From contig JBKQPD010000157.1 in the NCBI GenBank assembly GCA_052145175.1, positions 1,658 to 65,657 of the forward strand: a DNA stretch of 64,000 nt, read 5' to 3'. The notes beneath the pieces were generated by a model. The model saw nothing but the letters and a program-made list of their open reading frames with translations. It ran no database searches and was not told the DNA's origin. Below are positions 14,017 through 58,449 of the stretch, in pieces (positions within the stretch are counted from its first letter, which is position 1; each line of letters starts with the position of its first letter). Made by a program: the position numbers and the translations under genes. This DNA comes from Candidatus Binataceae bacterium. GTDB lineage: Bacteria; Desulfobacterota; Binatia; Binatales; Binataceae.

Positions 14017-14034
14017 GCCATGAGATGGGGCGCT

Positions 14035-38432: not shown

Positions 38433-38439
38433 AGAGTGC

Positions 38440-39045: not shown

Positions 39046-39110
39046 GAGTACCCGCCAGCCGACGACTTATTAATTAACTTAATCAATGGGCAGCGCACTA
39101 AATAATGCTT

Positions 39111-41680: not shown

Positions 41681-41788
41681 GGCGAGAATAATACCGAAAT
41701 TGTCAATATCGCCAATAGACGATCCCGTCGGGCAAGCTTATTTTGATGTCCGAAGAACGAAAAACCGTTCTACGAGGAGAACCAAGCA

Positions 41789-42430: not shown

Positions 42431-42508
42431 GCACGCCTCGTGCGCGGGGCGAAATATTCGCTCCGCGCACGAGCGAGTCCTGAAGTCGCTTTCGCATACG
42501 AGATCGCC

Positions 42509-42895
42509 ATGCCTGTTCACGTTGTGCAGCTCGGAAGTCCGCGTCTTCCCGGGGAGGGATTACGCATCGGCACGGTGCGGCGGCCGCCCCGCGGCGTGCC
42601 CAAGACCGCGTTCGCTTCGCGCAACTACTACGACGTCTGGCTGCCCGCGCTCGCGCCGAGCGAGGAGTTGCGCAAGTTCGGAGTAGCGGCCAAGAGCGAA
42701 AAAGACTGGCGCACTTTCGTCCGACGCTACCGGACTGAAATGAATCAGCCGGAGAAGCGCTGCCTGCTTGACCTGCTGGCGGCGCTATCGCGCCAGACGA
42801 GCTTTGCGGTCGGATGCTATTGCGCCGACGAGCATCGCTGCCATCGCTCCATCCTGCGCGAGCTCCTTGCCGAGCGTGACGCAGTCTTCGGCTGA
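42509..42895 (+). CDS. DUF488-family protein
   Basis: LRIGTVRRPPRGVPK...YDVWLPALAPSEEL..F..RY..EM...LL.L......ALGCYCADEHRCHRSIL fits DUF488. Start at ATG 42509. Confidence 0.7.
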   Translation: MPVHVVQLGSPRLPGEGLRIGTVRRPPRGVPKTAFASRNYYDVWLPALAPSEELRKFGVAAKSEKDWRTFVRRYRTEMNQPEKRCLLDLLAALSRQTSFAVGCYCADEHRCHRSILRELLAERDAVFG

Positions 42896-42920
42896 TGAAC
42901 GAAATGACGAGGAGAATACG

Positions 42921-43673
42921 ATGGCGGAACGAGTGCGGATCATTGGCAGTTATCTGTCACCCTATGTTCGCAAAGTCCTGGTGGTTCTCGATCTGAAGGA
43001 CATTCCTTACGAAATCGACCCCATTGTCCCGTTCTTCGGCAACGATCATTTCTCGCAAATCAGCCCTGTGCGGCGTATTCCCGTACTTCTCGATGATCAG
43101 ATCACGCTGGCCGACTCGACGGTCATTTGCCAATACCTGGAAGACCGCTATCCGGAGCCGACGCTCTATCCCGCCAAAATCGTTGACCGCGCCCGCGCCC
43201 GCTGGCTCGAAGAGTACGCCGATTCGCGCATGGGCGAGGTGTTCATCTGGCGACTGTTCAACCAGGTCGCGATCAAGCCGAGCGTGTGGGGCGAAAAAAA
43301 GGATACGGCAGTGGTCGAAAAAACTCTCCGGGAAGATGTGCCGCAAGTGCTCGACTATCTGGAGACGGAAGTTCCAACTCAAGGTTTCATCTTCGGCAAT
43401 GTCTCCATTGCTGACATCAGTATCGCCTGCTTCTTCCGGAATGCGGCATTCGCGAGGTTCGAGGTCGATGCTGCGCGATGGCCGCGCACGGCGGCGTTTG
43501 TCGACCGGGTATTGAAGCTGGACAGTTTCGCGAAACTCAGACCGATCGAGGAGCGGTTGCGACGCACGCCGCTCGCCCAGCATCGGGCGGTCCTGACGGC
43601 GGCCGGCCTGCCGGTGACGCCGGTCACCTGCGGAACGACGGAGCCGCGCCGCGGTGTCATGAACATCGATTAA
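42921..43673 (+). CDS. Glutathione S-transferase family protein
   Basis: IIGSYLSPYVRKVLVVLDLKDIPYEIDP, RRIPVLLDD, ADSTVICQYLEDRYPEP. Start at ATG 42921. Confidence 0.7.
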   Translation: MAERVRIIGSYLSPYVRKVLVVLDLKDIPYEIDPIVPFFGNDHFSQISPVRRIPVLLDDQITLADSTVICQYLEDRYPEPTLYPAKIVDRARARWLEEYADSRMGEVFIWRLFNQVAIKPSVWGEKKDTAVVEKTLREDVPQVLDYLETEVPTQGFIFGNVSIADISIACFFRNAAFARFEVDAARWPRTAAFVDRVLKLDSFAKLRPIEERLRRTPLAQHRAVLTAAGLPVTPVTCGTTEPRRGVMNID

Positions 43674-43795
43674 CCCGCCACCACTTTCGCAACGGCGCTC
43701 CATTGATCCTGCTTAACTGCTCGGCGGCCGATGTGATTACATTACGATAGCGGGTACCCGCCAATTATGGGTGGGACTCGATCAGGGGAGAAGCG

Positions 43796-44995
43796 ATGGA
43801 CTTCAAATACAGTGAGGAAGCCGAGGCCTTTCGCGCGGAGTTCCGTGCATGGCTCGAGGCCAACCCGGCCGGCCACGACAGTGCCGACAATCTGGTCGGC
43901 GAGTTCATGGACGCGGGCAGCGCGGGCTGGCAGCGCCATCTCGCGTGGCATCGCAAGATGCACAGTGGCGGCTGGGTCGGGATCACATGGCCCAAGGCCT
44001 ACGGCGGGCGCGGGGCCAAACTCGAACAGAGTATCGTGTTCGGCGAGGAACTGGCCCGGGTCAAGGCGCCGACGCTGGTCAACGGTCTGGGGATCGCGCT
44101 GGTCGGGCCCACCCTGATGCATTGGGCGACCGAGGAGCAGAAGAAGCGTTATTTGCCGAAGATTCTCTCAGCGGAAGAGATCTGGTGTCAGGGCTATTCG
44201 GAGCCGAATGCCGGTTCGGATGTCGCCGCCTTGCAGACCCGGGCGGTCGAGGATGGCGACGACTTTATTGTCAACGGCCAGAAGGTCTGGACCTCCGGGG
44301 CGCATCAGGCCGACTTGTGTATCCTGCTCGCACGCACGGACCCAGCCGCCCCCAAGCATAAGGGGATCAGCTACCTGCTGGTGGATATGCATACGCCCGG
44401 CGTGACGGTTAAGCCCTTGGTGCAGATCACCGGCGATCGCGGCTTCAACGAAGTCTTCTTCGAAGATGTTCGCGTGCCCAGGAAGAATCTGGTTGGCGAG
44501 AAGAACCAGGGATGGCAGGTGGCGGTGACCACGCTCGCCTTCGAACGCAGCAGTATCGGGTCGGGGTCGGCGCGCGACACGCTCACGGCGGTGCGCGAGC
44601 TCGCGGCCCTGGCGCGACAGATTCCGCGCAACGGTGGGACGGCATGGGACGACGCGAGCGTCCGCCAGCAGATCGCGAGCTTCGCCTGCCAGGCGGCGGC
44701 GTTGCGTTACACCAATCTGCGCCAGTTGACCCGCCGCCTGAAGGGGCTGCCGCCGGGGCCGGAGGGTTCGGGCGCGAAGCTGGTCGTGAGCGACCTGATT
44801 CTGGGTACCGCCAAGTTCGCGATGGAGTTGCTGGGTCCCTTCAGCCAGTTCGAGCAGGACGCGCCCTTCGCCCTCGATGGGGGCAAGTGGAGCTACCGGA
44901 TGCTCGGATCGCGGATGATGACGATCGCAGGCGGTACCAGCGAAATCCAGCGCAATATAATTGGCGAGCGCGTGCTGGGATTGCCCAAAGGATAG
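43796..44995 (+). CDS. Acyl-CoA dehydrogenase family protein (paralogue of 37245-38432)
   Basis: Collinear with the first copy from MDFKYSEEAEAFRAEF to IQRNIIGERVLGLPKG, with the same WCQGYSEPNAGSDVAALQTRA motif. Confidence 0.8.
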   Translation: MDFKYSEEAEAFRAEFRAWLEANPAGHDSADNLVGEFMDAGSAGWQRHLAWHRKMHSGGWVGITWPKAYGGRGAKLEQSIVFGEELARVKAPTLVNGLGIALVGPTLMHWATEEQKKRYLPKILSAEEIWCQGYSEPNAGSDVAALQTRAVEDGDDFIVNGQKVWTSGAHQADLCILLARTDPAAPKHKGISYLLVDMHTPGVTVKPLVQITGDRGFNEVFFEDVRVPRKNLVGEKNQGWQVAVTTLAFERSSIGSGSARDTLTAVRELAALARQIPRNGGTAWDDASVRQQIASFACQAAALRYTNLRQLTRRLKGLPPGPEGSGAKLVVSDLILGTAKFAMELLGPFSQFEQDAPFALDGGKWSYRMLGSRMMTIAGGTSEIQRNIIGERVLGLPKG

Positions 44996-45188
44996 GCGCA
45001 TTCGGATAGCCGATCCGGGGTCCCGAATCGATGCGGGCCCTGTTTTCATCGTGGCGAATCGATTAGCTGAATAAATTCGCGATCGCCGCCGTCGAATAAA
45101 TCAAGAACGGTAGCTTCCCCTGCCGTTCTAACGGCTGCCATCCTCCCTGGCAGTCGGAAAGGCTGTTCGTGCCAGACGGGCAGCCTCC

Positions 45189-45243
45189 CGGCGGGTGCTG
45201 GTCAAGCCTTTCCCCCCTTGATCAAACGCCCGCCGCTTTTTTT
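45189..45243 (+). terminator. Rho-independent terminator
   Basis: Stem cggcggg..tggtcaag / loop cctttcccc / cttgatca..cccgccg, followed directly by c-ttttttt (T-run 45237-45243). Confidence 0.65.
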
Positions 45244-45340
45244 CCATCCGCTGAAACCGGCGCCGTCGATCGACGTATAAGGGTTGCGCGAGGGGCGCTG
45301 CTTGACACCGCGACTCCGCGTCGGCATCGTGCAAGGCTCA

Positions 45341-45946
45341 ATGGTTTGGTTGCGCAGGTCTTTGGTGCTCGTCCCCGTCGTCGCTTTTCTTTCGGCGGCG
45401 CTGCTCTTGAGCTGTGGCGGTGGCAGCAGCAGCACGACCCCTACGGGGCAGCCATTCTCGCTGATGAGCGTCGCGATCTGCCCCGGGCCGCCTCCGACCG
45501 CGAGACCGACGCCATCGCCGACCAAGGGCGCCTCACCAACCGCCACGCCGACCCCGCAATGTACGCCAACCGCGGAAGCTTCGATTGCCGGCTTGAGCGC
45601 TCCTGATAACACGGTTCAATTCAACGTGCAGGGCACCTACCAGACCAGCCCAAGCAGCAAAAAGAAGCTCTACTTTGATGATACCAGCGACCTGTCATTG
45701 CGCTGGAATTCTCAGCCGGCCGGGCTCGCCACCAGCGGCGTTGTGCCCGGTGAGTTCGTCGGGGTGGCGCCCGGCTGCGTCTGCCTGACCGCGGAAATCG
45801 CGCCGGCGATTAGTTGCCCGGTCAGCGTGTCGATTGCGACCACTGGATGTACGCCGTGTCCGACGCCTTCGCCTTTCAACCTCTGTCCGGGACCAACGCC
45901 GACTGTGACCCCGTCGAAGACGCCGAAAGCGACGCCATCGCCGTAG
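45341..45946 (+). CDS. Lipoprotein with P/T-rich linkers and a bacterial Ig-like (Big_2-like) domain
   Basis: MVWLRRSLVLVPVVAFLSAALLLSCGG lipobox, PTPSPT-type low-complexity segments on both sides of a ~90-aa beta-rich domain. Confidence 0.55.
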   Translation: MVWLRRSLVLVPVVAFLSAALLLSCGGGSSSTTPTGQPFSLMSVAICPGPPPTARPTPSPTKGASPTATPTPQCTPTAEASIAGLSAPDNTVQFNVQGTYQTSPSSKKKLYFDDTSDLSLRWNSQPAGLATSGVVPGEFVGVAPGCVCLTAEIAPAISCPVSVSIATTGCTPCPTPSPFNLCPGPTPTVTPSKTPKATPSP

Positions 45947-45990
45947 CGCACCGCCGGCCAAGATTGCGACTTCGATTTTTGCGTTTTGCC

Positions 45991-46009
45991 TGTTAACAAA
46001 CGGTTCACA
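45991..46009. promoter_or_regulatory. Imperfect palindrome, candidate TetR operator
   Basis: TGTTAAC-aaacg-GTTCACA (6 of 7 positions symmetric), 68 nt upstream of the TetR gene that heads the lipid operon. Confidence 0.3.
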
Positions 46010-46076
46010 CGGCTGCGCTGGCGATTTGACTCCCGGCGCTCCTGATCAATAGGCTGGCGAGTCGGGACCGGGGGGA

Positions 46077-46724
46077 ATGGAAAAAGAAGCTCGGCGCGAG
46101 CAGGTGTTGCGTCACGCGAAGCGGATTTTCGCGCGCAAAGGTTACCATCACACCAACATATCCGACATTATCGCGCGGGCGCGGATCGCGCGCGGCACCT
46201 TTTACCTTTATTTCGAGAATAAGCGCGAACTCTTCGAAGAGTTGCTCGCCCAGGTCCTTGGCGAGCTACGGCTGCGCATCCAACGGCTGCGCGTCGGACC
46301 GGGCGAGCCCGATCCGGTCGAGCAACTGCGCTCCAACCTGCGGCGGGTGCTCGGCCTGGTGCTGGCGGAGCGCGAATTGACCGATATCCTGCTAAACCAT
46401 GCGATGGGGTTCGATCGGGAGCTCGATACCCGGATCATCGACTTTTACGAGCAGGTCGTTGATCAGATTCAGCGGTCGTTGGACCTCGGGATTGAGATGA
46501 ACCTGGTCCGGCGATGCGACACGCGCGTTGCCGCCTATTGTATCCTGGGCGGGATCAAGGAGGTGGTGGCGCAAGCCTCGCGCGCCCGGCGGCGCGATAT
46601 CGCGATGCTTGCTGAGGAGATTCTCGGCTTCGGGTTGCGCGGTGTGGCCCGTCCGGAACTGATCGCGGGAATCCTGAGCCAGCACCGCCCGGAGGACGCT
46701 GTTTTGACGCGTGAACTAGACTGA
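46077..46724 (+). CDS. TetR/AcrR-family transcriptional regulator
   Basis: N-terminal HTH: FARKGYHHTNISDIIARARIARGTFYLYFENKRELF. Confidence 0.85.
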   Translation: MEKEARREQVLRHAKRIFARKGYHHTNISDIIARARIARGTFYLYFENKRELFEELLAQVLGELRLRIQRLRVGPGEPDPVEQLRSNLRRVLGLVLAERELTDILLNHAMGFDRELDTRIIDFYEQVVDQIQRSLDLGIEMNLVRRCDTRVAAYCILGGIKEVVAQASRARRRDIAMLAEEILGFGLRGVARPELIAGILSQHRPEDAVLTRELD

Positions 46725-46725
46725 C

Positions 46726-47517
46726 ATGTCAGTACATCGTCCGGCAAAGACGCGCGGTGCGCGCCCGGCGGCAGCGGGGGCGGCCTTTTACGACCTCGAC
46801 GGCACGCTCGTCGCTCTCAACCTGATTCACACCGCGCTCTATCTGTTCTCGAATCTCGGCGAATGGACCGGGCGCGCGAGCTATCTGCTGAACTTCGCCG
46901 CGCGCATTCCGTCGTTGTATTTCGCCGAACGCCGCGACCGGTATCTGCTGAATGTCGTGCTCTTCGAGATGTTTAAAGGGGTCTCGCGCGATCGCCTCGA
47001 GGAACTGGGCGACGAATATTGCGAACGCGTGCTGATGGAAAATCTCTACCCGCAGGCGCGCGACATGATCGAATCGAATCGCGCCGCCGGACTCGAACCG
47101 GTGTTGGTCACCGGTTCGCCGGACTTTATCGCCGCGCCCCTCTCGCGGCGCCTCGGGATCGGTGACTACGCCGCCAACCGGCTGGCCTTCGTCCGCGGCC
47201 GCGCGACCGGACGCCTGGTGTCGCCGATCATGGCCGGTGACGAAAAGGCGCGCTGGTGCGCGGACTATGCGGCGGCGCGCCAGCTCGACCTGGGCAAATG
47301 CTGGGGCTATGCGGATTCACATTACGATTTACCGTTTCTCGCGGCCCTGGGCCATCCGGTGGCGGTCAACCCCGATCAGCGCCTGAGCGCGACCGCCCAA
47401 AGCCGGCAATGGCCGATTATTCACTTCAACCGACAGGGCCCACGTACCACCCTCGCGCGCGCGATGCGGGCGCAGGCCGAAAGCTGGATTTGGAGGTGGC
47501 TCGATGGCGCGGCCTGA
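46726..47517 (+). CDS. HAD-IB family hydrolase (SerB-like phosphatase fold)
   Basis: Motif I FYDLDGTLV, motif II VTGSP, motif III/IV K...YADSHYDLPFL. Starts 1 nt after the tetR stop. Confidence 0.75.
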   Translation: MSVHRPAKTRGARPAAAGAAFYDLDGTLVALNLIHTALYLFSNLGEWTGRASYLLNFAARIPSLYFAERRDRYLLNVVLFEMFKGVSRDRLEELGDEYCERVLMENLYPQARDMIESNRAAGLEPVLVTGSPDFIAAPLSRRLGIGDYAANRLAFVRGRATGRLVSPIMAGDEKARWCADYAAARQLDLGKCWGYADSHYDLPFLAALGHPVAVNPDQRLSATAQSRQWPIIHFNRQGPRTTLARAMRAQAESWIWRWLDGAA

Positions 47518-49144
47518 AGCCCGTCTGAAGGAGCTCAAGTCGTCCGATCTCAAACACGAGATCGACGCGCGCCGCGATCTCGTCGTTACGCTCAACCGGC
47601 GCTCGGAGAACCGCCTGATCGCCTATGGCGAAGACTTCATGTTCGAGAAGCTGCCGGTCGGAACCCGGGTGGTCTATCCGCCCCCGCCGCTCGATCCCCT
47701 GCCCGACCCCGACACGGCAATCCGTTACGCCCTGCTCCATCCGCTGAATGCTGATCCGCTGTTCGCGCAGCTCAATCCGAACATGCGGGTCACGATCGCG
47801 ATCGACGATATCAGCCTCCCCCTGCCGCAGATGCGCCGTCCGGATCTGCGCGAGCGGATGCTCAATTCGATCCTGCAGACCCTCGCGGATTACGGTGTGG
47901 ACGACGTTCATCTGGTTGTCGCGACCTCGCTCCATCGCCGCATGACGGAGCGCGAAATTCGCCGGATGGTCGGCGAACGCGCGTTTCGGCAATTCTGGCC
48001 CGAGCGGCTCTACAACTTCGACGCCGAAAACCGCGCCGAGATCGTTATGATGGGCAAAACCGATCATGGCGAAGAGGTCTGGCTCTCGCGCCGTGCGGCG
48101 GAGTCCGACCTCGTCATCTATCTGAACATCAACCTGGTGCCGATGGACGGCGGTCACAAGTCGGTCGCGGTCGGGCTCGCGCCTTATCAGAGCCTGCGTC
48201 ATCACCACAATCCGGCGACCCTGCGCGACAGCCATTCCTACATGGACCCGAACCGCTCGGCCCTGCACAACTCGGCGAACCGGATGGGCAAGCTGATCAA
48301 TCAGCAGCTCAACGTCTTTTCAGTCGAGACCGCCGTGAATACCCAGATGTACGGCGGGATGCTCGATTTTCTGCAGAAGAACGAGGATCGCTTTTCCGAT
48401 TGGGACCGGATGCGGCTCAAGGGTTTCCGCTGGACGCTCGGTTCGGTCTCGAATGACCTGCGCCGCCAGATGCTGCATCAATATGCGGCGCCCTATGGCC
48501 TGACCGGCGTCTGGGCCGGTGAGACCGAGACCGTGCATCGGCAGGCGCTGGCGAAGGTCTTCCAGCAGTACGCGGTACCGGTCAAAGGGCAGTCCGATAT
48601 CCTGATTGTCGGCGTGCCGTATATCTGTCCCTACAACGTCAATTCGATCATGAACCCGGTCCTCGTGCAGTGCACGGGCATGGGCTACCTGTTCAACATG
48701 TATCGCAACAAGCCGCTGGTGAAACCCGGCGGCACGATGATCATCTGTCATCCGCTGCGCGACGAATTTCACCCGGAGCATCATCCGAGCTACATCGAGT
48801 TTTTCCATCGATGCCTGAGTGAGACCACCGACGCCACGGAGCTTGCCAACAAGTACGAGCACGAGTTCGCGCACAACCCGACCTACACGCACATGTACCG
48901 TTACGGCCACGCCTACCACGGCGTGCATCCGTTCTACATGTGGTACTGGGGCGAGCCTGCGCGCCAGCATTGCGGGCGGGTGATCGCGGCCGGTTGCGAG
49001 GAGCCGGAGGTTGCCGCGCGGCTCGGCTGGGAGGCGGCTGACACGCTCGATGAAGCAATCGCGATGGCGACTGCGGATCACGGGCGCTCGGCCAGCATAA
49101 CTTATCTGCACCTGCCGCCACTGGTTATAGCCGATGTCGAATAA
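47504..49144 (+). CDS. LarA-like (DUF2088, lactate-racemase N-terminal domain) protein, extended 546-aa form
   Basis: VTIAIDDISLPLP, DLVIYLNINLVPMDGGHKSVAVGL (resembles the region around the cofactor-tethering Lys of LarA). GGAGGTGG RBS 6 nt upstream. 14-nt overlap with the HAD gene. Confidence 0.6.
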   Translation: MARPEARLKELKSSDLKHEIDARRDLVVTLNRRSENRLIAYGEDFMFEKLPVGTRVVYPPPPLDPLPDPDTAIRYALLHPLNADPLFAQLNPNMRVTIAIDDISLPLPQMRRPDLRERMLNSILQTLADYGVDDVHLVVATSLHRRMTEREIRRMVGERAFRQFWPERLYNFDAENRAEIVMMGKTDHGEEVWLSRRAAESDLVIYLNINLVPMDGGHKSVAVGLAPYQSLRHHHNPATLRDSHSYMDPNRSALHNSANRMGKLINQQLNVFSVETAVNTQMYGGMLDFLQKNEDRFSDWDRMRLKGFRWTLGSVSNDLRRQMLHQYAAPYGLTGVWAGETETVHRQALAKVFQQYAVPVKGQSDILIVGVPYICPYNVNSIMNPVLVQCTGMGYLFNMYRNKPLVKPGGTMIICHPLRDEFHPEHHPSYIEFFHRCLSETTDATELANKYEHEFAHNPTYTHMYRYGHAYHGVHPFYMWYWGEPARQHCGRVIAAGCEEPEVAARLGWEAADTLDEAIAMATADHGRSASITYLHLPPLVIADVE

Positions 49145-52100
49145 CAACGGCGTACTCAACGGGGCTGTCGCGGCCCACCGCACGATGCCGCCGCTCGAAA
49201 CGGTGCTGCGCAAGCGGCGCCTGCTCATCACGGGAGGCACCGGCTTTCTCGGCAAGGTGCTGCTCTCGATCCTGTTGCGGCATCATCCCGAAATCGGGCG
49301 TATCTTTCTGCTGATCCGCGGTGATCGCAAATCGAGCCTCAACCGTTTCCAGCGCGAGATTCTCGACTCGCCCGCCCTCGGCCCGGTACGCGAGTACCTC
49401 GGCGCCAGCTTCGACCGGTACGTCGAGGAACGGGTCGTGGTGGTCGCCGGCGATATTACCGAACCCGGTCTCATCACCGACGGCGCCGAGCTGCTGGGCG
49501 AGGGCGCGCTCGACGCGGTGATCCATTGCGCCGGGCTGGTGAATTTCGAGGCCGCGCTCGAAAAGGCGCTCGCGATCAACGTCACTGGCGTACAGCACGT
49601 CATCGAGTTCTGCCGCCGGCATCAAGCCGCCCTGCTGCACGTCTCGACCTGCTATGCGGCCGGCGCCGCCGATGGCCATCGCTACGAAGACGACGTGCCG
49701 ATCGATTGGGCGCCGCTCAACCAGCGGAACTTTAATCTACAGCGGGAAATTCGCGACGCGCTCGCCGCGTGCCAGCGGGTCGAAGTGGAATCGCGCGATC
49801 AGGCCCATCAGGCGGAATTTCGTGCGACGATTGAGGACGGCGCGGAAGGCTTCGCCGCCAATGACGGCCATGAGCACGCGCAGGAGTCGCGCCGCAAGCA
49901 GTGGGTCGAGGAGCGCCTCAAGCAGATCGGCCGCGAGCGCGCGCTCGGCTGGGGCTGGCCCAACACCTACAGCTACACCAAGAGCCTGGGCGAGCAACTC
50001 GTGCTGGCGGCCGGCGACACCCTGGCGGTGACGGTCGCGCGTCCTTCCGTGATCGAAGGCGCCCTGCGCGATCCCCTCCCCGGCTGGAATCAGGGGGTCA
50101 ACACCAGCGCGCCGCTGACCTACATGGCGGGCCGCGGCTACCGCTTCTATCCCGCCAAGGGCAAGCTCGTCCTCGACGTCATCCCGGTTGATCTGGCCGC
50201 GCACGCGATGATTCCGATTCTCGCGGCGCTGCTGCTCAAGCGGCAGCAGCCCATCTATCAACTCTGCACCTCCGACGTTAATCCCCTGCCGATGCGCCGG
50301 TTGGTCGAGCTCACCGCGCTCGGCAATCGCCTGCAGCATCGCCGCGCGGGTGGCGGTCCGATGGGCAAGCTGGCGCCCCATCTGGAAGCCGTGGTGGTTT
50401 CGCAGAACACTTATGAACTGGCGAGCCAGACTTTGCCCGCGATGCTCAAGCACGCGGCGGTGCTTGGTAAAACGCTGCTCGGGGACGAGTCCACGGCGGC
50501 GCGCGGCTTCGAGCGGCGGATCAACAGTATCGCGGATAACGCGGAGCTCGCACGCTCGCTGGTCGACGTCTATCGGCCGTACATCCAGGAGTTGGTCTAC
50601 ACCTTTCACGGCCGCAATATCCGCGAACTGTACGCGCAGCTCGCCGACGCCGACGTCGCGCGTCATCCGTTCCGCCCGGATCGGATTGATTGGAAGGACT
50701 ATTGGATAAACATCCATCTGCCCGGTCTGCGCCAACATATTTTTCCGCAGCTCGACCTGCATACACGGACCCGGCCGCGCGCCCTGCTGCGCCACAAGAC
50801 CCTGCTGGAGATGCTCGAGCGCGGGGCCGAGCGCTACGGCGCCCGGGTCGCGCTGGAAGCCCGCACCCCTTCCGGCCAACGCACCGCGATGACCTATCGC
50901 GAGTTGCGCGACGCCGCCCATCGCGCCGGACTGCTCCTGCGCACGCGCGGTATCAAGCCCGCGGACCGGGTTCTGCTGATTAGCGAGAACTCGCCGGACT
51001 GGGTAATCGCCTACTTCGCCATTCTTTATGCGGGCGCGGTCGCGGTACCGCTCGATCATCTGATTGCCCTCGAGGAGCTGCTGCCCATCTGCCGCATCGC
51101 GGAACCGCGGGCCGCCCTGCTCTCCTCCGGCTGCCAGAATCGTCTCGACCGGGCCCTGCGCGACGCGCTCGACGGTATCCTCGAAATCGAGCTCAGCGAG
51201 TTGCATCGCCCTTTTATTCTGCGCGACCCGGCCGCCGCCACGGTGAATGTCGAACGCAAGACGCTCGCGTCCATCGTCTTCACGTCGGGCACGACCGGCA
51301 CGCCCAAGGGCGTGATGCTCAGTCACGGCAATTTCACCGCCGAGGTGATGATGCTGGGCCGGGTCTTCGCGCTCGACGGCAACGACGTGGTGCTCTCGCT
51401 GCTGCCGCTGCATCATACCTTTGAGTTCACCTGCGGGATGTTGCTGCCGCTCGCCAGCGGCGCCCGCATTGTCTATCCGCTGGGAATCGACGCGGCCAGC
51501 CTGGCGCGTACGCTGGCCGACGTGCGGCCGACCGCACTGATCGCGGTGCCGGCGCTGTGGGAAGCCGTCCATCGCCGGATCACCGACGAGATCGAAGCCC
51601 GGGGGCCGTTCTTCGCGGCGGCCTTCGCCCGCTTGCGCGATCTGCATCGGCTGCTCGACGGCGACTACCACCTGAATCTCGGTCATCTGATTTTTCGGCA
51701 GGCGCATAACGCCCTGGGCGGCCGGCTCAAGCTGGCGGTGAGCGGCGGCGCCGCGCTGCCGCAGCGGGTCGCGCAATTCTTCAATGACCTGGGGCTCAAG
51801 CTGCTCGAAGGTTACGGCCTTACCGAAACGGCGCCCGTGCTATGCGTGGCGCGGCCCGACGACCCGCTGATCCCGGGCTCCGTGGGCAAGCCGCTCGGCG
51901 GCGTCGAAATCCGGCTGGACGGCGCGGACGAAAGCGGCGTCGGCGAAGTGATCGCGCGCGGCGCGAACGTGATGAGCGGCTATTATCATAATGCGGCCGC
52001 CACCGCGGAAGTGCTTCGCGACGGCTGGCTGCATACCGGCGACCTCGGCCGTTTCGACGCTGACGGCGCTCTCTCCATCGTTGGGCGGGCCAAGGATGTC

Positions 52101-53501
52101 ATCGTCGACTCCGGTGGCAACAACGTCTATATCGACGAGATCGAGGAGACTTACGGCCACTCACCGTACATCAAGGAGATGGCGGTGGCGGGACTCAAGG
52201 TGGCGCAGGGCGAGCAGGTCGCGGCACTCGTGGTGCCGGCCTACGCACGGGGCGAGAGCCGCCGCGCGGTCGAAGATCGGCTGCGCGAACATTTCGATAA
52301 AGTCGGCGCCGGACTGAGCGCGCACAAGCGCATCAGAATCCTCCGCTTCACCGATACCGAACTGCCGCGCACCCGCACCCGCAAGGTCAAACGCGCCGAA
52401 GTCGCGGCCGCACTCGAACGGATGATCCAGAATCAGCCGGGCGCGCGGACGCGCGGCGGCGACGAGATCGTGCCGTGGCTGGCCCACGCGCTGGAGCAGG
52501 TGGCCGGGGGCGCTACGGAAATTACGCCGGCGACCCGCCTGATCGAGGACCTCGGGCTCGACTCGCTCGCCCTCGCCGAACTGGCCGAAGCGATCGCGGT
52601 CAGGGCCGGGGTCGAGCTGAGCGGCGAGCAGCTCGCCAACGTCAGCACGATCGCGGACCTGCAAAAGCTGCTGACCGCGGGACAGAATCGCCCGCGACTA
52701 CCCTCTTACGCCCGCTTCGCCCGACCCTATACCTTCGAGCTGCCCGGCCCGCTCAAGCGTCTCGGCGAAGCGGCGGTGCGCCGCACGTTGCAGGCCGCGC
52801 TGGACGGATGGCTTAAGCCGCGCATCATGGGACGCGGCAATATCCCCGCGAATCGCAACGTGCTGGTGGTGGCCAATCATTCGAGCCACGTCGACTTCGG
52901 TCTGGTGAGCCATGCGATGGCGGCGCACGGCCGCGAGCTGATCGTGTTGGCGGCGAAGGATTACTTTTTCAACAACGGTATTCGGCGCTTCATCGCCATC
53001 AATTTCACCCGGCTGATTCCGTTTGATCGCGAGCGCGCGCAACTCGAGTCGCTCGAAGAGGCCCTCGAGCAACTGCGCGCGGGCCGTAGTGTGCTGATGT
53101 TCCCCGAGGGCACCCGTTCGCCCGATGGCGCGATCCATGATTTCAAGAGCGGCGCCGGCTACCTCGCCCTGCATAGCGGATGCGACGTGCTGCCGATCCA
53201 TATTCGCGGCTCCTACGACGTGCTCGGCAAGGGCAGTCTCATTCCCCGCCGCGCCCCCGTCGAGGTGCGGATCGGGTCGGTGCTCACGAGCGCCACCCTG
53301 CGCGCGGCGGCTCATGACACGGAAGGCCCGGGCGCGTATCGCAAGCTCGCCGATCTCATGCGCGACGCGGTCGTCGGGTTGACCGAGCAAGGGCGTAAGC
53401 GTGGCCGGTTGAGCCCGTCGTCGGCGGTGCCCTCGACGCCACGGACCGTGGCCGAAAAGCCCGGCACGGGACGCGCGGCGCGCAAGCAGGCCAAGGGGTG
53501 A
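49134..53501 (+). CDS. Four-domain lipid megasynthase: fatty-acyl reductase (NAD_binding_4), acyl-AMP/CoA ligase, carrier protein, PlsC-type acyltransferase (ElbD-like)
   Basis: aa ~25-330: ITGGTGFLGKVLL .. YSYTKSLGE (FAR/thioester reductase). aa ~545-1075: FTSGTTGTPKGV, EGYGLTETAP, TGDLGRFDADG, PRTRTRKVKR (AMP-binding). aa ~1095-1175: LGLDSLALAEL (phosphopantetheine Ser). aa ~1195-1400: ANHSSHVDF (HX4D) and FPEGTRSPDG (PlsC). Confidence 0.85.
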   Translation: MSNNNGVLNGAVAAHRTMPPLETVLRKRRLLITGGTGFLGKVLLSILLRHHPEIGRIFLLIRGDRKSSLNRFQREILDSPALGPVREYLGASFDRYVEERVVVVAGDITEPGLITDGAELLGEGALDAVIHCAGLVNFEAALEKALAINVTGVQHVIEFCRRHQAALLHVSTCYAAGAADGHRYEDDVPIDWAPLNQRNFNLQREIRDALAACQRVEVESRDQAHQAEFRATIEDGAEGFAANDGHEHAQESRRKQWVEERLKQIGRERALGWGWPNTYSYTKSLGEQLVLAAGDTLAVTVARPSVIEGALRDPLPGWNQGVNTSAPLTYMAGRGYRFYPAKGKLVLDVIPVDLAAHAMIPILAALLLKRQQPIYQLCTSDVNPLPMRRLVELTALGNRLQHRRAGGGPMGKLAPHLEAVVVSQNTYELASQTLPAMLKHAAVLGKTLLGDESTAARGFERRINSIADNAELARSLVDVYRPYIQELVYTFHGRNIRELYAQLADADVARHPFRPDRIDWKDYWINIHLPGLRQHIFPQLDLHTRTRPRALLRHKTLLEMLERGAERYGARVALEARTPSGQRTAMTYRELRDAAHRAGLLLRTRGIKPADRVLLISENSPDWVIAYFAILYAGAVAVPLDHLIALEELLPICRIAEPRAALLSSGCQNRLDRALRDALDGILEIELSELHRPFILRDPAAATVNVERKTLASIVFTSGTTGTPKGVMLSHGNFTAEVMMLGRVFALDGNDVVLSLLPLHHTFEFTCGMLLPLASGARIVYPLGIDAASLARTLADVRPTALIAVPALWEAVHRRITDEIEARGPFFAAAFARLRDLHRLLDGDYHLNLGHLIFRQAHNALGGRLKLAVSGGAALPQRVAQFFNDLGLKLLEGYGLTETAPVLCVARPDDPLIPGSVGKPLGGVEIRLDGADESGVGEVIARGANVMSGYYHNAAATAEVLRDGWLHTGDLGRFDADGALSIVGRAKDVIVDSGGNNVYIDEIEETYGHSPYIKEMAVAGLKVAQGEQVAALVVPAYARGESRRAVEDRLREHFDKVGAGLSAHKRIRILRFTDTELPRTRTRKVKRAEVAAALERMIQNQPGARTRGGDEIVPWLAHALEQVAGGATEITPATRLIEDLGLDSLALAELAEAIAVRAGVELSGEQLANVSTIADLQKLLTAGQNRPRLPSYARFARPYTFELPGPLKRLGEAAVRRTLQAALDGWLKPRIMGRGNIPANRNVLVVANHSSHVDFGLVSHAMAAHGRELIVLAAKDYFFNNGIRRFIAINFTRLIPFDRERAQLESLEEALEQLRAGRSVLMFPEGTRSPDGAIHDFKSGAGYLALHSGCDVLPIHIRGSYDVLGKGSLIPRRAPVEVRIGSVLTSATLRAAAHDTEGPGAYRKLADLMRDAVVGLTEQGRKRGRLSPSSAVPSTPRTVAEKPGTGRAARKQAKG

Positions 53502-54379
53502 CTAACGTCGCTGAGGGCCAGGGACGACGTACCTCGTCCGCCGGTATGACCTTGTCCTTCGCCCAGTTGCTCGCCGCCCTCGCCCAGCCCGCCTGGTGCT
53601 GGGACTCGCGCACGCATGAACTGATTACCCGGCTGGCCATCGCTGCTTTGCCCGCGACCCCGCTCAAAACGGGCTTTGAGCGCAACACGGCACAACTGGA
53701 AGAATACTCGATCGAACCGGATACGGTGCTCAAGCACATGTATGGCGAAGCGGAAGCGCATCGTCATTACATCGACCTCGAATATTTTGGCGCCGATCCG
53801 TTTGCGAATCTGAATCCGGATTTCAACGCGATGGAACGTCGCTTCGGGATCAGAACGCTCGATCGCTCGGGCGTTCTGCCCTGGGCGATCGAGGCCGAAG
53901 CCGCGGCTACCGCTGGAGCCATGCGCGCCGGCGACTGTGCCGGACTCCTGCGCCATGCCGGCTATCTCGCGCACTACGTCGGCGACGCGAGCCAACCGCT
54001 CCATACGACACGCTTTTATGATGGCTTTACGGCGGAGGACCGTGGGATGCACGCGCGGCTCGAATGGTCGGTCGATCATCGAGTCAATGAGATCGAAGCG
54101 TTGGCGTCCGCCCAGGTGCGCTTGCAGCCGATTGTTTCGGTGTGGACCCCGGCGATCGCCGAGCTCAAGGAATCGAATGCGCTGGTTCAACAGGTCGTGA
54201 CCGCCGACCGCACTGCGCGCGCGGAAGCCGGTCGCAGCCACGCGGAGTACACTCGCGCGCTAATGGGAATCGAGCAGGACATGATCATCCACCAGATCGC
54301 CGATGCGGCCTCCGTCCTGACCTCAATCTGGATCTATGAAGCCGATCAGGCCGGCACCCCGAGCATCTGTTCACCCTAG
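53498..54379 (+). CDS. Zinc-dependent phospholipase C / S1-P1 nuclease superfamily protein with probable Tat signal
   Basis: GTGA start/stop overlap with the megasynthase gene. The GRRTSS..LLAALAQPA/W signal leaves an N-terminal Trp (WDSRTHELI), the Zn ligand of this fold. Further H/D-rich motifs: HRHYIDLE, GYLAHYVGDASQPLHTT. Confidence 0.6.
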   Translation: MTNVAEGQGRRTSSAGMTLSFAQLLAALAQPAWCWDSRTHELITRLAIAALPATPLKTGFERNTAQLEEYSIEPDTVLKHMYGEAEAHRHYIDLEYFGADPFANLNPDFNAMERRFGIRTLDRSGVLPWAIEAEAAATAGAMRAGDCAGLLRHAGYLAHYVGDASQPLHTTRFYDGFTAEDRGMHARLEWSVDHRVNEIEALASAQVRLQPIVSVWTPAIAELKESNALVQQVVTADRTARAEAGRSHAEYTRALMGIEQDMIIHQIADAASVLTSIWIYEADQAGTPSICSP

Positions 54380-54420
54380 CGGGTCTCCCTAAAGCGTGGT
54401 CGGGTTTAAGATTCTTGACG

Positions 54421-54472
54421 CAGCTCGCAGACTCGCTTGCTCGCTCCGCGCGGCAGCGCGCTCCGCTAGCTT
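54421..54472. repeat. Inverted copy of the dispersed intergenic repeat family
   Basis: Its reverse complement reads gctagcggagcgcgctgccgcgcggagcgagcaagcgagtctgcgagctg, matching the cores at 3181, 29191 and 38471. Confidence 0.5.
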
Positions 54473-54506
54473 CCTTAATGCGGCGGCCACGCGATAATAT
54501 TCCTCG

Positions 54507-55043
54507 ATGGACTGGTGGACGAAGAGACCCGACAACGAAGCGCGTTCAATCCGGGGCCGCTACTCGCGCCCCTCGGTGAGCGAGATTATGGACGATCTGC
54601 TGGTGGGCGAGTATCCGCGCCTGGGCGATCTGGACTGGCTCAAGGACGAGTATCGCATCAGCGCGATCCACAATCTGCAGGACGACATCGACCTGCATAT
54701 CAATGGGCTCGACGAGCTTGAGCTGCGCGACGAGTGCAGCCGGCTCGGGCTGACGTTTGTTCGCACCCCGATTCACGATGGCAGTGCCGACGACATGGCC
54801 GCGCGGCTGGTGCATGCGCTGGACGCCCTCGGCAACCTGATCGAGGACGAGCAACGCGTCTTTCTGCACTGCAACGGCGGGCTGAATCGCGCGCCAACTG
54901 TCGCGATCGGCTGGCTGCACGCCCAGCGCGATATGTCCCTCGACGAAGCGATGTACTACTTCAAGCAGCGCCGGCCGTGCGGTCCCTTCATGACGGTGCT
55001 CGAGGGTCATTTTGGCCCGCGCGATCAGAAGCCCGCACGCTAA
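54507..55043 (+). CDS. Cys-based dual-specificity phosphatase (DSP/PTP-loop)
   Basis: Active-site signature HCNGGLNRAPT (HCx5R(S/T)) with upstream general-acid region IHDGSA. 178 aa. Confidence 0.75.
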   Translation: MDWWTKRPDNEARSIRGRYSRPSVSEIMDDLLVGEYPRLGDLDWLKDEYRISAIHNLQDDIDLHINGLDELELRDECSRLGLTFVRTPIHDGSADDMAARLVHALDALGNLIEDEQRVFLHCNGGLNRAPTVAIGWLHAQRDMSLDEAMYYFKQRRPCGPFMTVLEGHFGPRDQKPAR

Positions 55044-55053
55044 GCCCGATGGT

Positions 55054-55833
55054 GTGACGGAGGGCGGCGTCGCGGGCGTATCGGCCGCGGGCAGTCTGTC
55101 GCGCGCAAATCCGCTGCGAGAAAATCTGCTCAGATTTTGCGCCTGGCTGATTCACCTCTATACGGCTTCCGGCGCGATCATCGGCCTGCTGGCGATGCAC
55201 TTTACCGCCCATGACGACTTTCGCACGGCCTTCGTCCTGATGGCGGTCGCGCTCTTTATCGACGCGACCGACGGACCGCTGGCGCGCGCCGTCGCGATCC
55301 GCAAGCGCGTGCCTGAATTCGATGGCACCACCCTGGACAATATCGTCGATTTTCTGAATTATGTCGCGGTGCCGGCCTTCCTGATGGTTCGCGCCGGGCT
55401 GCTCGTCGTGGGCAACGCAGGGCTCGCGAGCGCGGGGTTCGTGATGCTCGCGAGCGCCTACGGCTTCTGCCGGGTCGACGCGAAGACCGCCGATCTCTAT
55501 TTCCGCGGTTTTCCCTCGTATTGGAATCTTGTCGCGTTTTATCTCTTCTGCCTGGGCTGGGCGCCCGCCTTGAACACCCTGATCGTCATTGCGCTGGCGA
55601 TCCTGGTTTTTATGCCGGTGAAGTTCATCTATCCCAACCGCACCGTGCGGATGCGAGCGTTGACGCTCAGTCTGATCGCCATCTGGGCGATCGTGACCGC
55701 GACGCTGCTGATTGAACTCCCGCGCATCAATCCTGTTTTGCTTTACTCCTCGCTGGCGTTCGTCGTTTACTACTTTGTTATGTCGGCCGTCTTGCAAGTA
55801 ACATCGCCGGGACCCGGTTCGCTGCGGGTCTAG
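55054..55833 (+). CDS. pcs: Phosphatidylcholine synthase (CDP-alcohol phosphatidyltransferase family)
   Basis: IHLYTASGA, FIDATDGPLAR (D-G-x2-A-R), FDGTTLDNIVDFLNYVAVPAF, YFRGFPSYWNLVAFYLF and FMPVKFIYPNR parallel rhizobial Pcs as I recall it. Start uncertain: GTG 55054, or ATG 55012 overlapping the phosphatase gene. Confidence 0.7.
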   Translation: MTEGGVAGVSAAGSLSRANPLRENLLRFCAWLIHLYTASGAIIGLLAMHFTAHDDFRTAFVLMAVALFIDATDGPLARAVAIRKRVPEFDGTTLDNIVDFLNYVAVPAFLMVRAGLLVVGNAGLASAGFVMLASAYGFCRVDAKTADLYFRGFPSYWNLVAFYLFCLGWAPALNTLIVIALAILVFMPVKFIYPNRTVRMRALTLSLIAIWAIVTATLLIELPRINPVLLYSSLAFVVYYFVMSAVLQVTSPGPGSLRV

Positions 55834-55843
55834 TGGGTCAACT

Positions 55844-57643
55844 ATGGCCGCTGATGTAATCCCCGCGACGCCCGCCTGGCTCGAGATACTAAGGGGCAAC
55901 GCCCCGGTATTGTTGATCGCGCCGCATGGCGGCCGCGCCGGGGCGGCGGCCCGTGCGACGCTCCATCCCAAGGTCAACGACCTCGAGACGGCGGCCATCA
56001 CCCGCGAACTCGCGGAGCGGCTCGACGCCACCGCGCTCGTGAACTCGGGCATGGACCGCAATGATCTCGATTGCAACCGGCTGTCGCAGGTTATGGAGCG
56101 CGAGCCCTGGCTGCTCGAGACGATCGCGGACGAAGTCGCGCGTATCACGGCCCGCCACGGCCGCGTGACCGTCCTGCTGATCCACGGCTGGAACATTATC
56201 GAACCCCGGGTCGATCTCGGGCTGGGCCTGAAGGAGCGCAACGGCCGGCTGCATCCGACGCGCGGCGCGCATATCGCGGCCGACGACGAATTCATCCAGG
56301 ATACCGCCCACGCGCTCGCGACCCGTTTGCGTCAGGCCGGGATCGTGACGACCTTCGGACTGCGCTATCCGGGGGGCGCCGCACAAAATCTGTTGCAGGC
56401 CTTCACGCCGCGTCACGCCGCGAGCGATCATCCCGCGGTGCGCCGGCTCGCCAATTTGGCGGCGACCGGCGTGATCAATGCCTTGCAGCTCGAGCTTTCG
56501 GTTGCGGTGCGGCTCGCCGGCGACGTGCGGCGGAACATGATCGACGCGGTCGTCGCGACTTTCGGCCCGCCTCGGGGTGACGGCGCCAGCCGGTCCGCGA
56601 TCGCCGTCGTGCGCGACGCACCGCCGAAGCCGGCGCGTAAATCCGTAGCCAGCTCGGCTAACCTTCCCCCTTTTCGCATCGGGGTCGAATTCTACGACCC
56701 GGCAATCGGTCTCGGCGGCATGGCCAGCTTTGATTTTGGACCGAACGCCGCGGGCGGGCGCATCATGATGCTGTTCGAACGCCGCCGCGTCGCGCTTTTC
56801 ACGGGCGAGGGCGGAGCAGTGCGAATCGGCGACAGCGTCGCACTGGGGCCGTTGACCCTGGACGGCGGTGCGGGCAGCAGCGGCCTGCGTTTCCACGGTC
56901 CCGCCGTGGTCGTCGACGACGGTACGGCCTATCTGAGCGTCGAGGGGGCGCTCGCCGGGGGACGACTCGATCCCGCGATGGAAGTCGACACGACGCTCGA
57001 GTTCGCAGATGGTGCGCCGCGTTTTGGCGACGTGCTGGGCCGGCTCGAAGCAATCATCGCGCAGCTCGCCCAGGCTCGGGCCGGCGCCGACGAAGTCGCG
57101 CCGATCATCGTGCCGCGCTCCAGCTTCGGCCGCTTACGCGGCGCAGTCAGCTTCGACGGTGCGCGCCACCGGCTCGACGCGATCGCGCGGGTCGGCGTTT
57201 CGTTCACCGGGCTCGGGACGCGGAACTTCGCTCAGCGCCGGATGGTCTGGGCCTGCCTCGATGGCGTACAACCGCACGAGGCCCTTGAGCTGAGCGCGCT
57301 GGAATTTGACGCTTCGCCGACCCATCGTAGTGCCGCGCTGCTCGCTTGCGGCGCCTGGCAGCAGGCCCAACTTTGCGGCCTCGAGCTTGAGGCGGCGTCG
57401 CCCTACGTGCCGCCGGACAAGATCGCCGCGTCAATCATCGACGCCTCGCGCGTAATTGCCCTGGAGGGAGTTCCCGACACCTTCATGACCCTATCCCGGC
57501 CCGGACCTGACGGCAGCCGAATCCACACGTCTTTAGGCTTCGCCCGTTATCGAATCGACGGCCGCGAGAGCGCCGGCATGTACGAATACTCGCGCCGCGC
57601 GGGAACTGCGACGCTCGACGGAGCGTCCAGTACAGGGGATTAG
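55844..57643 (+). CDS. Hypothetical 599-aa protein; N-terminal third weakly N-formylglutamate-amidohydrolase-like
   Basis: Longest ORF with strong GC3 bias, 10 nt after pcs. The N-terminus (VLLIAPHGGRAG .. NDLDCNRL .. VLLIHGW) recalls the FGase fold. The remainder is unrecognised. Confidence 0.5.
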   Translation: MAADVIPATPAWLEILRGNAPVLLIAPHGGRAGAAARATLHPKVNDLETAAITRELAERLDATALVNSGMDRNDLDCNRLSQVMEREPWLLETIADEVARITARHGRVTVLLIHGWNIIEPRVDLGLGLKERNGRLHPTRGAHIAADDEFIQDTAHALATRLRQAGIVTTFGLRYPGGAAQNLLQAFTPRHAASDHPAVRRLANLAATGVINALQLELSVAVRLAGDVRRNMIDAVVATFGPPRGDGASRSAIAVVRDAPPKPARKSVASSANLPPFRIGVEFYDPAIGLGGMASFDFGPNAAGGRIMMLFERRRVALFTGEGGAVRIGDSVALGPLTLDGGAGSSGLRFHGPAVVVDDGTAYLSVEGALAGGRLDPAMEVDTTLEFADGAPRFGDVLGRLEAIIAQLAQARAGADEVAPIIVPRSSFGRLRGAVSFDGARHRLDAIARVGVSFTGLGTRNFAQRRMVWACLDGVQPHEALELSALEFDASPTHRSAALLACGAWQQAQLCGLELEAASPYVPPDKIAASIIDASRVIALEGVPDTFMTLSRPGPDGSRIHTSLGFARYRIDGRESAGMYEYSRRAGTATLDGASSTGD

Positions 57644-57755
57644 CCGCGTCGCTTAGAACGGACATTGCTATCCTTCTATAGCAAGTGTACAAGCTCTATT
57701 TTGTTGGCTCCGTATCCGCCAAACCGAAGCGTCCCCCTGTCTGGAGGTAAGCCAA

Positions 57756-58358
57756 ATGAACCGATTCGCACAACTGGGCTGTGTGGTAGTTCTTAGCTTT
57801 TTGGGCGGCTGCGGCGGCTTAACCAACGCGGCATCTAGTGGTGATGCGCCTGCAGTGCAGGCGCTGATAGACAAGGGGGCCGACGTCAATGCCAAGAACC
57901 TCGCTGGAACGACGCCGCTCATATGGGCCTCGCAGAATGGTCACCTTGATGTGGTGCAGCTGCTGCTCGACAAGGGAGCCGACGTTAACGCCAAGCAGAA
58001 TAACGACGGTGCGACCGCGCTGATGATAGCCTCCTACTTCGGTCACGTTGACGTGGCGCAGGCGCTGCTCGCCAAGGGGGCCGACGTCAATGCTATGGCG
58101 AATACCGGCGAGACCGCGCTGACAGGGGCCTCCGCAAACGGCCACCCTGAGGTGGTACAGGCACTGATCGAAAGCGGGGCCTCTAGCCAGGTTGCCGTCA
58201 ACGGCACGTCCCCGGCGTTCGCGCCCGGCGTTGGCTTTGCTCAGCCTTTGCCTTATGGTGAAACTGCTATGGGCATACAGTCGGACCTTAACCAAGCGGC
58301 CGTCCAGAATCAGATCAATAACCGGTGGGACGCCGCCGTCATGAACCGGATGCGCTGA
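57756..58358 (+). CDS. Ankyrin-repeat lipoprotein
   Basis: Lipobox VLSFLGGCGG, then four ANK repeats (G.TPLIWASQNGHLDVVQLLLDKGADVNAK..). GGAGG RBS. Confidence 0.75.
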   Translation: MNRFAQLGCVVVLSFLGGCGGLTNAASSGDAPAVQALIDKGADVNAKNLAGTTPLIWASQNGHLDVVQLLLDKGADVNAKQNNDGATALMIASYFGHVDVAQALLAKGADVNAMANTGETALTGASANGHPEVVQALIESGASSQVAVNGTSPAFAPGVGFAQPLPYGETAMGIQSDLNQAAVQNQINNRWDAAVMNRMR

Positions 58359-58449
58359 GGAAAACTGGGACGGAGATTCTGCGCACCCCGAGATGTTGAG
58401 AGTTCTCGTCAGAAACTGGTTTTCAAGCCCAGAAGATTGGTCGCGACCG

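Follow-up and report, generated by a model that had tools for sequence, protein, structure and literature searches.

A 64,000-nucleotide stretch of a Candidatus Binataceae bacterium genome (assembly GCA_052145175.1, contig JBKQPD010000157.1, positions 1,658–65,657 of the forward strand; hereafter the window) with approximately 62% G+C content was analysed. It carries a gene cluster in which all genes lie on the same strand and mostly overlap or stand no more than 10 nt apart. The largest feature under study in this cluster is an uninterrupted open reading frame (ORF) at 49134–53501 (+), which begins with ATG, contains zero internal stops and encodes a multifunctional protein of 1455 amino acids. 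This protein is probably a Binataceae member of the ElbD family, whose multifunctional enzymes belong to the oxygen-compatible elb route by which bacteria make 1-O-alkyl (ether) glycerolipids. An earlier sequence-only reading had described it as a single polypeptide combining a reductase, an acyl-AMP ligase, a carrier protein and an acyltransferase. Pfam analysis revealed all four domains in that order, each scoring above its curated cut-off. The motifs quoted in it could all be recovered, each within the nucleotide range it had been given.

The first domain (approximately 20–545 AA; 49191–50768, +) was predicted to be a complete FAR-type NAD(P)H reductase, comprising a Rossmann fold and the FAR C-terminal domain. 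The Pfam NAD_binding_4 ('male sterility' / FAR reductase) profile matched 32–359 AA with an E-value of 1.5e-49, above the gathering score, and a weak match to the Pfam 'Sterile' profile of the FAR C-terminus was found at 473–537 AA. Residues 14–507 of the solved fatty acyl-CoA reductase 7EOZ could be aligned end to end with residues 26–537 of the ElbD-type protein (E 3.7e-49). The motif TGGTGFLG is located at 33–40 AA (49230–49253) and YSYTK at 279–283 AA (49968–49982). The second domain (approximately 556–1100 AA; 50799–52433, +) was assigned to the ANL-family acyl-AMP ligases based on Pfam AMP-binding (561–951 AA, E 4e-78) and AMP-binding_C (1002–1084 AA), which scored above the gathering score. 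Foldseek also placed it among ANL ligases, such as 3CW9 (TM 0.84). Its motifs are TSGTTGTPK (717–725 AA; 51282–51308), GYGLTE (893–898 AA) and TGDL (968–971 AA). The third domain (approximately 1110–1182 AA; 52461–52679, +) is a carrier protein matching Pfam PP-binding at 1115–1176 AA with 32.9 bits against a cut-off of 20.8. Its GLDSL motif (1141–1145 AA) contains the predicted phosphopantetheine-attachment residue Ser1144 (52563–52565). The fourth domain (approximately 1230–1400 AA; 52821–53333, +) is of the PlsC/AGPAT acyltransferase type, with a Pfam Acyltransferase match at 1230–1357 AA (E 2.6e-25, above the gathering score), the motifs HSSHVD (1249–1254 AA) and FPEGTR (1323–1328 AA), and PlsC 5KYM as its best solved relative (E 9.3e-19). 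A simple hydropathy scan of the whole protein gave no convincing transmembrane segment.

A homologue search with the ElbD-type protein revealed a 98%-identical protein of 1456 amino acids on an independent contig, followed by more than 100 further proteins of 1400–1490 amino acids with 64–87% identity and the same Pfam set, also on independent contigs. All close homologues carrying names belonged to Candidatus Binataceae or to contigs labelled 'Deltaproteobacteria'. When one sequence per 50%-identity cluster was searched using residues 1–1200 as the query, approximately 65 clusters of about 1350–1700 amino acids matched the whole query at 31–46% identity. The representatives also included many forms of about 900 amino acids, which consist of ligase, carrier and acyltransferase without the reductase. 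In a scan of species-representative genomes, from which the taxon spread and the loci of other phyla given here are those among the matches listed, full-length relatives were present in Polyangiaceae, Kofleriaceae, Bradymonadaceae, 'Myxococcales', Pyrinomonadaceae, other Acidobacteriota, Planctomycetota and Phycisphaerae. The identity of full-length relatives outside Binataceae was 30–46%. Earlier reports of ElbD homologues cover Myxococcota, Acidobacteriota, Poribacteria, Latescibacterota, Chloroflexota, Planctomycetota and others, while no link of Binatota/Binatia to ElbD or ether lipids was found in the literature searched. A more distant ElbD clade (28–33% identity) was also observed at about 10001–16200 of an acidobacteriotal locus (L013) and of a Phycisphaerae locus (L015). 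These two loci carry a HAD gene and a zinc-type alcohol dehydrogenase downstream, with no LarA-like gene or elbE nearby.

Residue conservation was assessed in an alignment of 31 diverse ElbD-type proteins with 29–65% identity to the window protein. Residues G34, G37, F38, Y279 and K283 of the reductase were invariant in all 31 sequences. Likewise invariant were G719, G893–E898 and T968–D970 of the ligase (T717 and P724 nearly so), S1144 of the carrier, and H1249, D1254 and P1324–R1328 of the acyltransferase. The window protein thus has the expected catalytic residues in all four domains. Since these active-site residues do not vary, all four activities appear to be under selection across the ElbD family.

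The domain layout corresponds to that of ElbD, which is encoded in the elbA–elbE operon of Myxococcus xanthus and consists of an N-terminal FAR1-like domain followed by acyl-CoA-synthetase, carrier and AGPAT-like domains (PMC9131029; architecture also in PMC9426513). By its sequence, the four-domain combination is therefore not new but is the published ElbD architecture on one polypeptide. Directly upstream of the ORF are the two genes expected of an elb cluster. The first, at 46726–47517 (+), encodes an ElbB-like HAD-IB phosphatase (Pfam HAD, E 6.5e-30; NCBIfam TIGR01490, 115.7 bits against 98.3), in line with elbB of M. xanthus, a HAD-like phosphohydrolase (PMC9131029). The second, at 47504–49144 (+), encodes an ElbC-like protein of 546 amino acids belonging to the LarA superfamily of nickel-pincer nucleotide proteins.

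This gene order is widespread. The order HAD, LarA-like, ElbD was present at nine loci of other phyla and at all three Binataceae-type loci (L001–L003), and two more loci of other phyla (L004 and L011) retain the LarA-like gene alone upstream of elbD. In Myxococcota and Acidobacteriota, the HAD gene adjoining elbC and elbD is 38–43% identical to that of the window. At 10 of the 12 loci compared, elbC and elbD either overlap or are separated by no more than 10 nt; the overlap is 11 nt in the window, and an identical 11-nt overlap was seen in the Polyangia locus L010. As the HAD and LarA-like genes precede elbD across phyla, the window cluster is judged, from gene content and order, to share an elbB-elbC-elbD core with them. 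The whole Binataceae arrangement recurs on two other Binataceae-type contigs, with one variable member, the phospholipase C-like gene described below. In five loci of other phyla (L008, L009, L010, L014 and L016), elbD is directly followed by elbE, which encodes a NAD-dependent epimerase/dehydratase; these proteins are 45–62% mutually identical, and the order elbB-elbC-elbD-elbE is that of M. xanthus. No conserved gene was found upstream of elbB in the other-phyla loci, nor any Lar cofactor genes. The gene elbA is absent from the cluster and from the window. A promoter and terminator scan of 45000–58600 yielded no more sites than shuffled sequence and was uninformative.

The assignment to the ElbD family rests on the shared domain order, the shared elbB-elbC-elbD core and the 34–45% per-domain identity, over the full length, to proteins of elbB-C-D-E clusters in metagenome-assembled genomes of Polyangia, Kofleriaceae and 'Myxococcales'. 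In the sequence-only reading, ElbD appeared only among the enzymes for comparison, and the protein itself counted as an unusual fusion. On the same three grounds, this part of it is not supported, and the protein is better described as an ordinary ElbD-family member in a cluster of variant composition.

The functional proposal follows what is known of the M. xanthus enzyme. According to PMC9131029, which also relays Lorenzen et al. 2014, ElbD of M. xanthus has ligase and carrier activities in vitro, deletion of elbD causes the loss of most alkyl and vinyl ether lipids, the i15:0 aldehyde is gone in elbD mutants, and the vinyl bond is made by CarF and not by ElbD. Esterification by the ElbD acyltransferase could not be demonstrated in vitro. 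The chemistry suggested by the sequence-only reading, in which a free acid passes via the carrier to an aldehyde or alcohol while the PlsC domain acylates a glycerol-phosphate-type acceptor, agrees broadly with the literature proposal for ElbD (PMC9131029, PMC9426513). In the Binataceae protein, the ligase would first adenylate a free long-chain fatty acid and load it as a thioester onto the phosphopantetheine arm of Ser1144, a step that would need a phosphopantetheinyl transferase encoded outside the window. The carrier, held between flexible linkers, may then hand some acyl chains to the FAR-type reductase at the N-terminus, where reduction with NAD(P)H would give a fatty aldehyde and possibly an alcohol. 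Other acyl chains would go to the PlsC-type domain and esterify a glycerol-phosphate-type or lyso-alkyl acceptor. For the ether-bond step itself, the LarA-type ElbC and the HAD phosphatase ElbB are conserved candidate helpers. The phosphatidylcholine-synthase-like, phosphatase and phospholipase C-like genes downstream suggest that head-group attachment and remodelling of the product could follow.

An AlphaFold2 model of residues 1–1200 was built from a 40-sequence alignment. The mean predicted local distance difference test score (pLDDT) was 82.4 and the predicted template modelling score (pTM) was 0.55; the domains were modelled confidently, with no fixed inter-domain arrangement. Low-confidence segments were located at 546–548 AA, at the end of the reductase, and at 1102–1109 and 1183–1200 AA, which flank the carrier. 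Foldseek searches with this model mainly returned matches to the ligase domain, together with a few multi-domain nonribosomal peptide synthetase (NRPS) modules at low TM. Structure prediction, which had been proposed as a check, thus supported the individual domains but gave no overall arrangement. The further claim of an obligatory action of the reductase in trans or in a dimer, made because the carrier is so distant, does not follow from distance in the sequence. The modelled linkers fit a swinging carrier that could visit the ligase, the reductase and the acyltransferase of its own chain, and the model neither shows nor excludes a dimer or chemistry in trans. Taken together, the domain reading of the earlier proposal was correct and its chemistry is in line with the literature, while the unusual-fusion status and the obligatory action in trans or in a dimer are not supported.

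Several points weigh against a role in ether-lipid synthesis in Binataceae. We know of no ElbD for which reductase and acyltransferase activities have been shown. Orthology to the M. xanthus enzyme rests on the myxobacterial metagenome-assembled genomes and on gene order, and not on a direct alignment with MXAN_1528. No elbE was found in the 64-kb window or at L001–L003 by tblastn with five elbE queries (E <= 1e-3), and elbE is a gene that M. xanthus reportedly requires to reach full levels of ether lipids; elbE characterises the cluster rather than the ElbD enzyme. No phosphopantetheinyl transferase, AGPS or CarF was present among the window ORFs scanned, which otherwise had housekeeping and catabolic functions. 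Pontiella isolates carry an elbD homologue, but ether lipids were undetected in them (PMC11868695), which indicates that the presence of an elbD homologue does not prove ether-lipid production. Binataceae themselves are an uncultured group.

The Pontiella observation also bears on a different explanation, which is lipid recycling of the Aas kind. Here, the ligase, carrier and acyltransferase would re-acylate lysophospholipids, the FAR domain would only feed neutral lipids such as wax esters, and no ether lipid would be made. Both the ligase and the acyltransferase regions do match NCBIfam models of the Aas type ('acyl-[ACP]--phospholipid O-acyltransferase'), and the forms of about 900 amino acids without a FAR domain are common in many phyla. 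The scores, however, were far below those required for Aas membership, being 219.6 bits against 1221 for NF006386 and 183.5 against 1349 for NF005291. In Aas, the acyltransferase precedes the ligase, and no built-in carrier is known. The coupling of elbD to elbB and elbC, kept across phyla, marks an elb cluster, and the full four-domain form is genetically required for the ether lipids of M. xanthus (PMC9131029). Aas-like recycling is thus considered quite unlikely. Another explanation is that the protein is a carboxylic acid reductase (CAR) or an NRPS-like enzyme of specialised metabolism, which frees an aldehyde for a secondary metabolite and uses the acyltransferase as a tailoring accessory. 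This would be in line with weak NCBIfam matches to the thioester-reductase domain (TIGR01746, 87.9 bits) and to carboxylic acid reductase, and with the classification of elbD homologues as NRPS-like cores by genome-mining tools (PMC9426513). The carboxylic acid reductase model NF041592, however, reached only 166.3 bits against 1300. The order in the window protein is reductase-ligase-carrier-acyltransferase and not ligase-carrier-reductase, and the reductase is a complete FAR with the FAR C-terminal domain instead of a terminal NRPS-type domain. The neighbours are related to phospholipids (HAD phosphatase, phosphatidylcholine-synthase-like and phospholipase C-like genes). This explanation is very unlikely. 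As identities for the protein, CAR and Aas were both rejected on model scores and domain order. The idea that an assembly error or a frameshift has joined separate genes into one ORF, for which split elbD genes with reductase and ligase in separate ORFs in other lineages (among them L023, L029 and L033) could be cited, has a negligible probability and is effectively refuted, because the 98%-identical protein and the more than 100 full-length homologues with the same domains lie on independent contigs, no internal stop interrupts the frame, and conservation in the 31-sequence alignment runs across the domain junctions without a break.

A conserved partner of the enzyme is ElbC. This protein scored 837 bits against a cut-off of 740 with the NCBIfam model NF052592 ('NPN-dependent hydroxyacid isomerase, LarAH14/15/16'), matched Pfam Lar_N with an E-value of 3.7e-36, and had the single-histidine LarA-like enzymes 9Q2U and 9Q3J as its nearest solved structures (E 5e-31). 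ElbC-like genes were considered in the window and at L001, L002, L005, L007–L011, L014, L016, L017 and L019. Those upstream of elbD in three phyla encode proteins 49–59% identical to that of the window, whereas ElbD itself is 30–41% identical; ElbC is thus more conserved than ElbD across the loci. The overlapping or closely spaced reading frames indicate translational coupling between elbC and elbD in Binataceae, Myxococcota and Acidobacteriota.

Functional residues of ElbC were assigned by hand from an alignment with 9Q2U and the residues named in PMC12611868, using 12 ElbC sequences from three phyla. D101 and D102 were invariant in all 12 sequences, D102 occupying the position of the ribose-binding Asp. 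The same held for H144 at the catalytic His position, K219 at the position of the Lys covalently linked to the cofactor, and the pair H234/H235 at the Ni-binding position. Val212 stands where a second catalytic histidine would be, in agreement with the lack of this histidine in LarA groups 14 and 15. Judged from the model score and from the Asp, Lys, Ni-site His and one catalytic His that are in place, ElbC is predicted to be a one-histidine nickel-pincer enzyme of the LarA type. A group-14 LarA enzyme was inactive on the hydroxy acids tried, and the same authors suggested that one-histidine homologues might shift a hydride within the substrate instead of racemising it. The ether-lipid literature assigns no function to ElbC (PMC9131029), and no paper tying ElbC to LarA or DUF2088 was found in the literature searched. 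The genes larB/C/E for Lar cofactor synthesis were not found among the window ORFs scanned.

A speculative extension, which we regard as unlikely, is that ElbC is the missing catalyst of the ElbD pathway. It might transiently oxidise the C2 hydroxyl of acyl- or alkyl-glycerol phosphate, a 'hidden redox' step allowing ether-bond chemistry like that of AGPS without free dihydroxyacetone phosphate (DHAP) intermediates, or it might set the stereochemistry of the glycerol backbone. If so, elbB-elbC-elbD together with the phosphatidylcholine-synthase-like gene and the phosphatase, without elbE, would form a compact, self-contained ether-phospholipid route in Binataceae.

The remaining genes of the cluster surround this core. 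The first is a TetR-family regulator at 46077–46724 (+; Pfam TetR_N, E 4.4e-15, and TetR_C_24), which occupies the same position in the Binataceae-type loci L001 and L002 with 69–75% identity. It gave no tblastn match (E <= 1e-8) in any locus of other phyla. Its presence suggests that the cluster may be regulated in response to lipids. Downstream of elbD, the gene at 53498–54379 (+) overlaps the elbD stop by 4 nt with a GTG start and holds the position that elbE has in other phyla. Its product, probably exported, belongs to the zinc phospholipase C / P1-nuclease superfamily. At its N-terminus, a putative signal peptide precedes W-D-S-R-T-H. Pfam scores were borderline, at 26.9 bits against 26.8 for Zn_dep_PLPC and 23.8 bits, under the cut-off, for S1-P1_nuclease, and the protein may be either a phospholipase or a nuclease. 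The gene is present at L001 and absent from L002 and L003.

The next gene, at 54507–55043 (+), encodes a phosphatase of the dual-specificity phosphatase (DSP) fold (Pfam DSPc, E 7.8e-15), whose nearest solved structures are the plant glucan phosphatases LSF2 and SEX4 and laforin (E 1.4e-20). It is followed at 55012–55833 (+; true start probably near 55100) by a divergent phosphatidylcholine-synthase-like CDP-alcohol phosphatidyltransferase, predicted to be an integral membrane protein. NCBIfam phosphatidylcholine synthase models gave 145–200 bits, under the equivalog cut-offs of 300–440. The translation has several hydrophobic segments and contains DATDGPLAR-x12-G-x3-D-x3-D, in the form DGx2AR-x12-G-x3-D-x3-D, which we take to be the synthase-type variant of the motif. 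Both genes are conserved at L001–L003. The pair recalls the synthase-plus-phosphatase pairs of phospholipid head-group pathways.

The last gene of the cluster, at 55844–57643 (+), encodes a conserved protein of 599 amino acids with no Pfam or NCBIfam family, and a sequence search against solved structures gave no match. Its named homologues are on Binataceae or 'Deltaproteobacteria' contigs, except for one labelled 'Acetobacteraceae'. The AlphaFold2 model had a pLDDT of 81.5 and a pTM of 0.83. For the N-terminal half, Foldseek gave an N-formylglutamate-amidohydrolase-like fold; for the C-terminal half, it gave the AttH / 25-phosphosteroid-lyase barrel fold, along with fungal pericyclases and kievitone hydratase. 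A role in lipid binding or lipid modification is possible.

Other features of the window were also recorded. Upstream of the cluster, the region 37233–44995 contains two acyl-CoA dehydrogenases, two glutathione S-transferases and an HpaB-type hydroxylase with an AraC/DJ-1 regulator; this catabolic-type neighbourhood is not conserved in other Binataceae-type loci. At 5845–7137 (+), directly after an NtrY-like histidine kinase (3559–5796), one ORF with a putative TTG start encodes a response-regulator receiver (16–125 AA) joined to a complete LpxC deacetylase (162–427 AA). From its sequence, it looks like an unusual fusion tying lipid A synthesis to two-component signalling. A DUF1015 protein followed by a RES-domain protein is located at 31273–33582 (+) and is unrelated to ElbD; the RES-domain protein is a candidate toxin from a toxin-antitoxin pair of the RES-Xre type.

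The ElbD enzyme family and its architecture were already known; the present analysis adds a Binataceae host, a cluster variant and a link between ElbC and LarA. Binataceae, an abundant uncultured soil lineage, joins the likely ether-lipid producers. Bacterial ether lipids bear on the 'lipid divide' debate and on lipid-based environmental proxies. The conserved cluster core is elbB-elbC-elbD rather than elbD-elbE. For the unsolved question of how oxygen-tolerant bacteria form the ether bond through ElbD, the nickel-pincer-type ElbC provides a definite candidate that can be tested.

Among known systems, CAR enzymes use the same logic of ligase, carrier and reductase for the reduction of free acids, and in Aas a PlsC-type acyltransferase is joined with ATP-dependent activation of fatty acids. 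Both differ from ElbD in domain order, and neither unites all four activities. The FAR1-GNPAT-AGPS pathway of mammals and myxobacteria, including the FAR-acyltransferase fusion MXAN_1675 of M. xanthus, likewise combines a FAR-type reductase with a glycerolipid acyltransferase to supply ether-lipid synthesis. In contrast to that pathway, the Binataceae cluster and window contain no AGPS flavoenzyme, and the substrate would be held on the built-in carrier after ATP-dependent activation instead of being supplied as acyl-CoA. The closest known system is ElbD of M. xanthus (MXAN_1528), which, according to PMC9131029 and PMC13012113 relaying Lorenzen et al. 2014, carries the same four domains in the same order on one chain, and which is also preceded by the HAD gene elbB and by elbC. 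The Binataceae-type host does not belong to Myxococcota, however, and the 34–45% per-domain identity refers to myxobacterial cluster proteins and not to MXAN_1528 itself. The window cluster further differs in having no elbA or elbE, in its upstream TetR gene, and in the phospholipase C-like, DSP phosphatase, phosphatidylcholine-synthase-like and 599-amino-acid protein genes downstream. The elb-like clusters of Acidobacteria subdivision 4 and of sponge symbionts (Poribacteria and Acidobacteriota) have the same four-domain NRPS-like elbD core with an elbB homologue (PMC9426513; bioRxiv 10.64898/2026.06.23.733905). In the acidobacteriotal loci analysed here, elbE directly follows elbD, whereas the Binataceae cluster is without it. 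Some of the published elb-like clusters adjoin phospholipid head-group genes, including CDP-alcohol phosphatidyltransferases, and the ether lipids of subdivision 4 carry phosphocholine, which is in line with the presence of a phosphatidylcholine-synthase-like gene in the Binataceae cluster.

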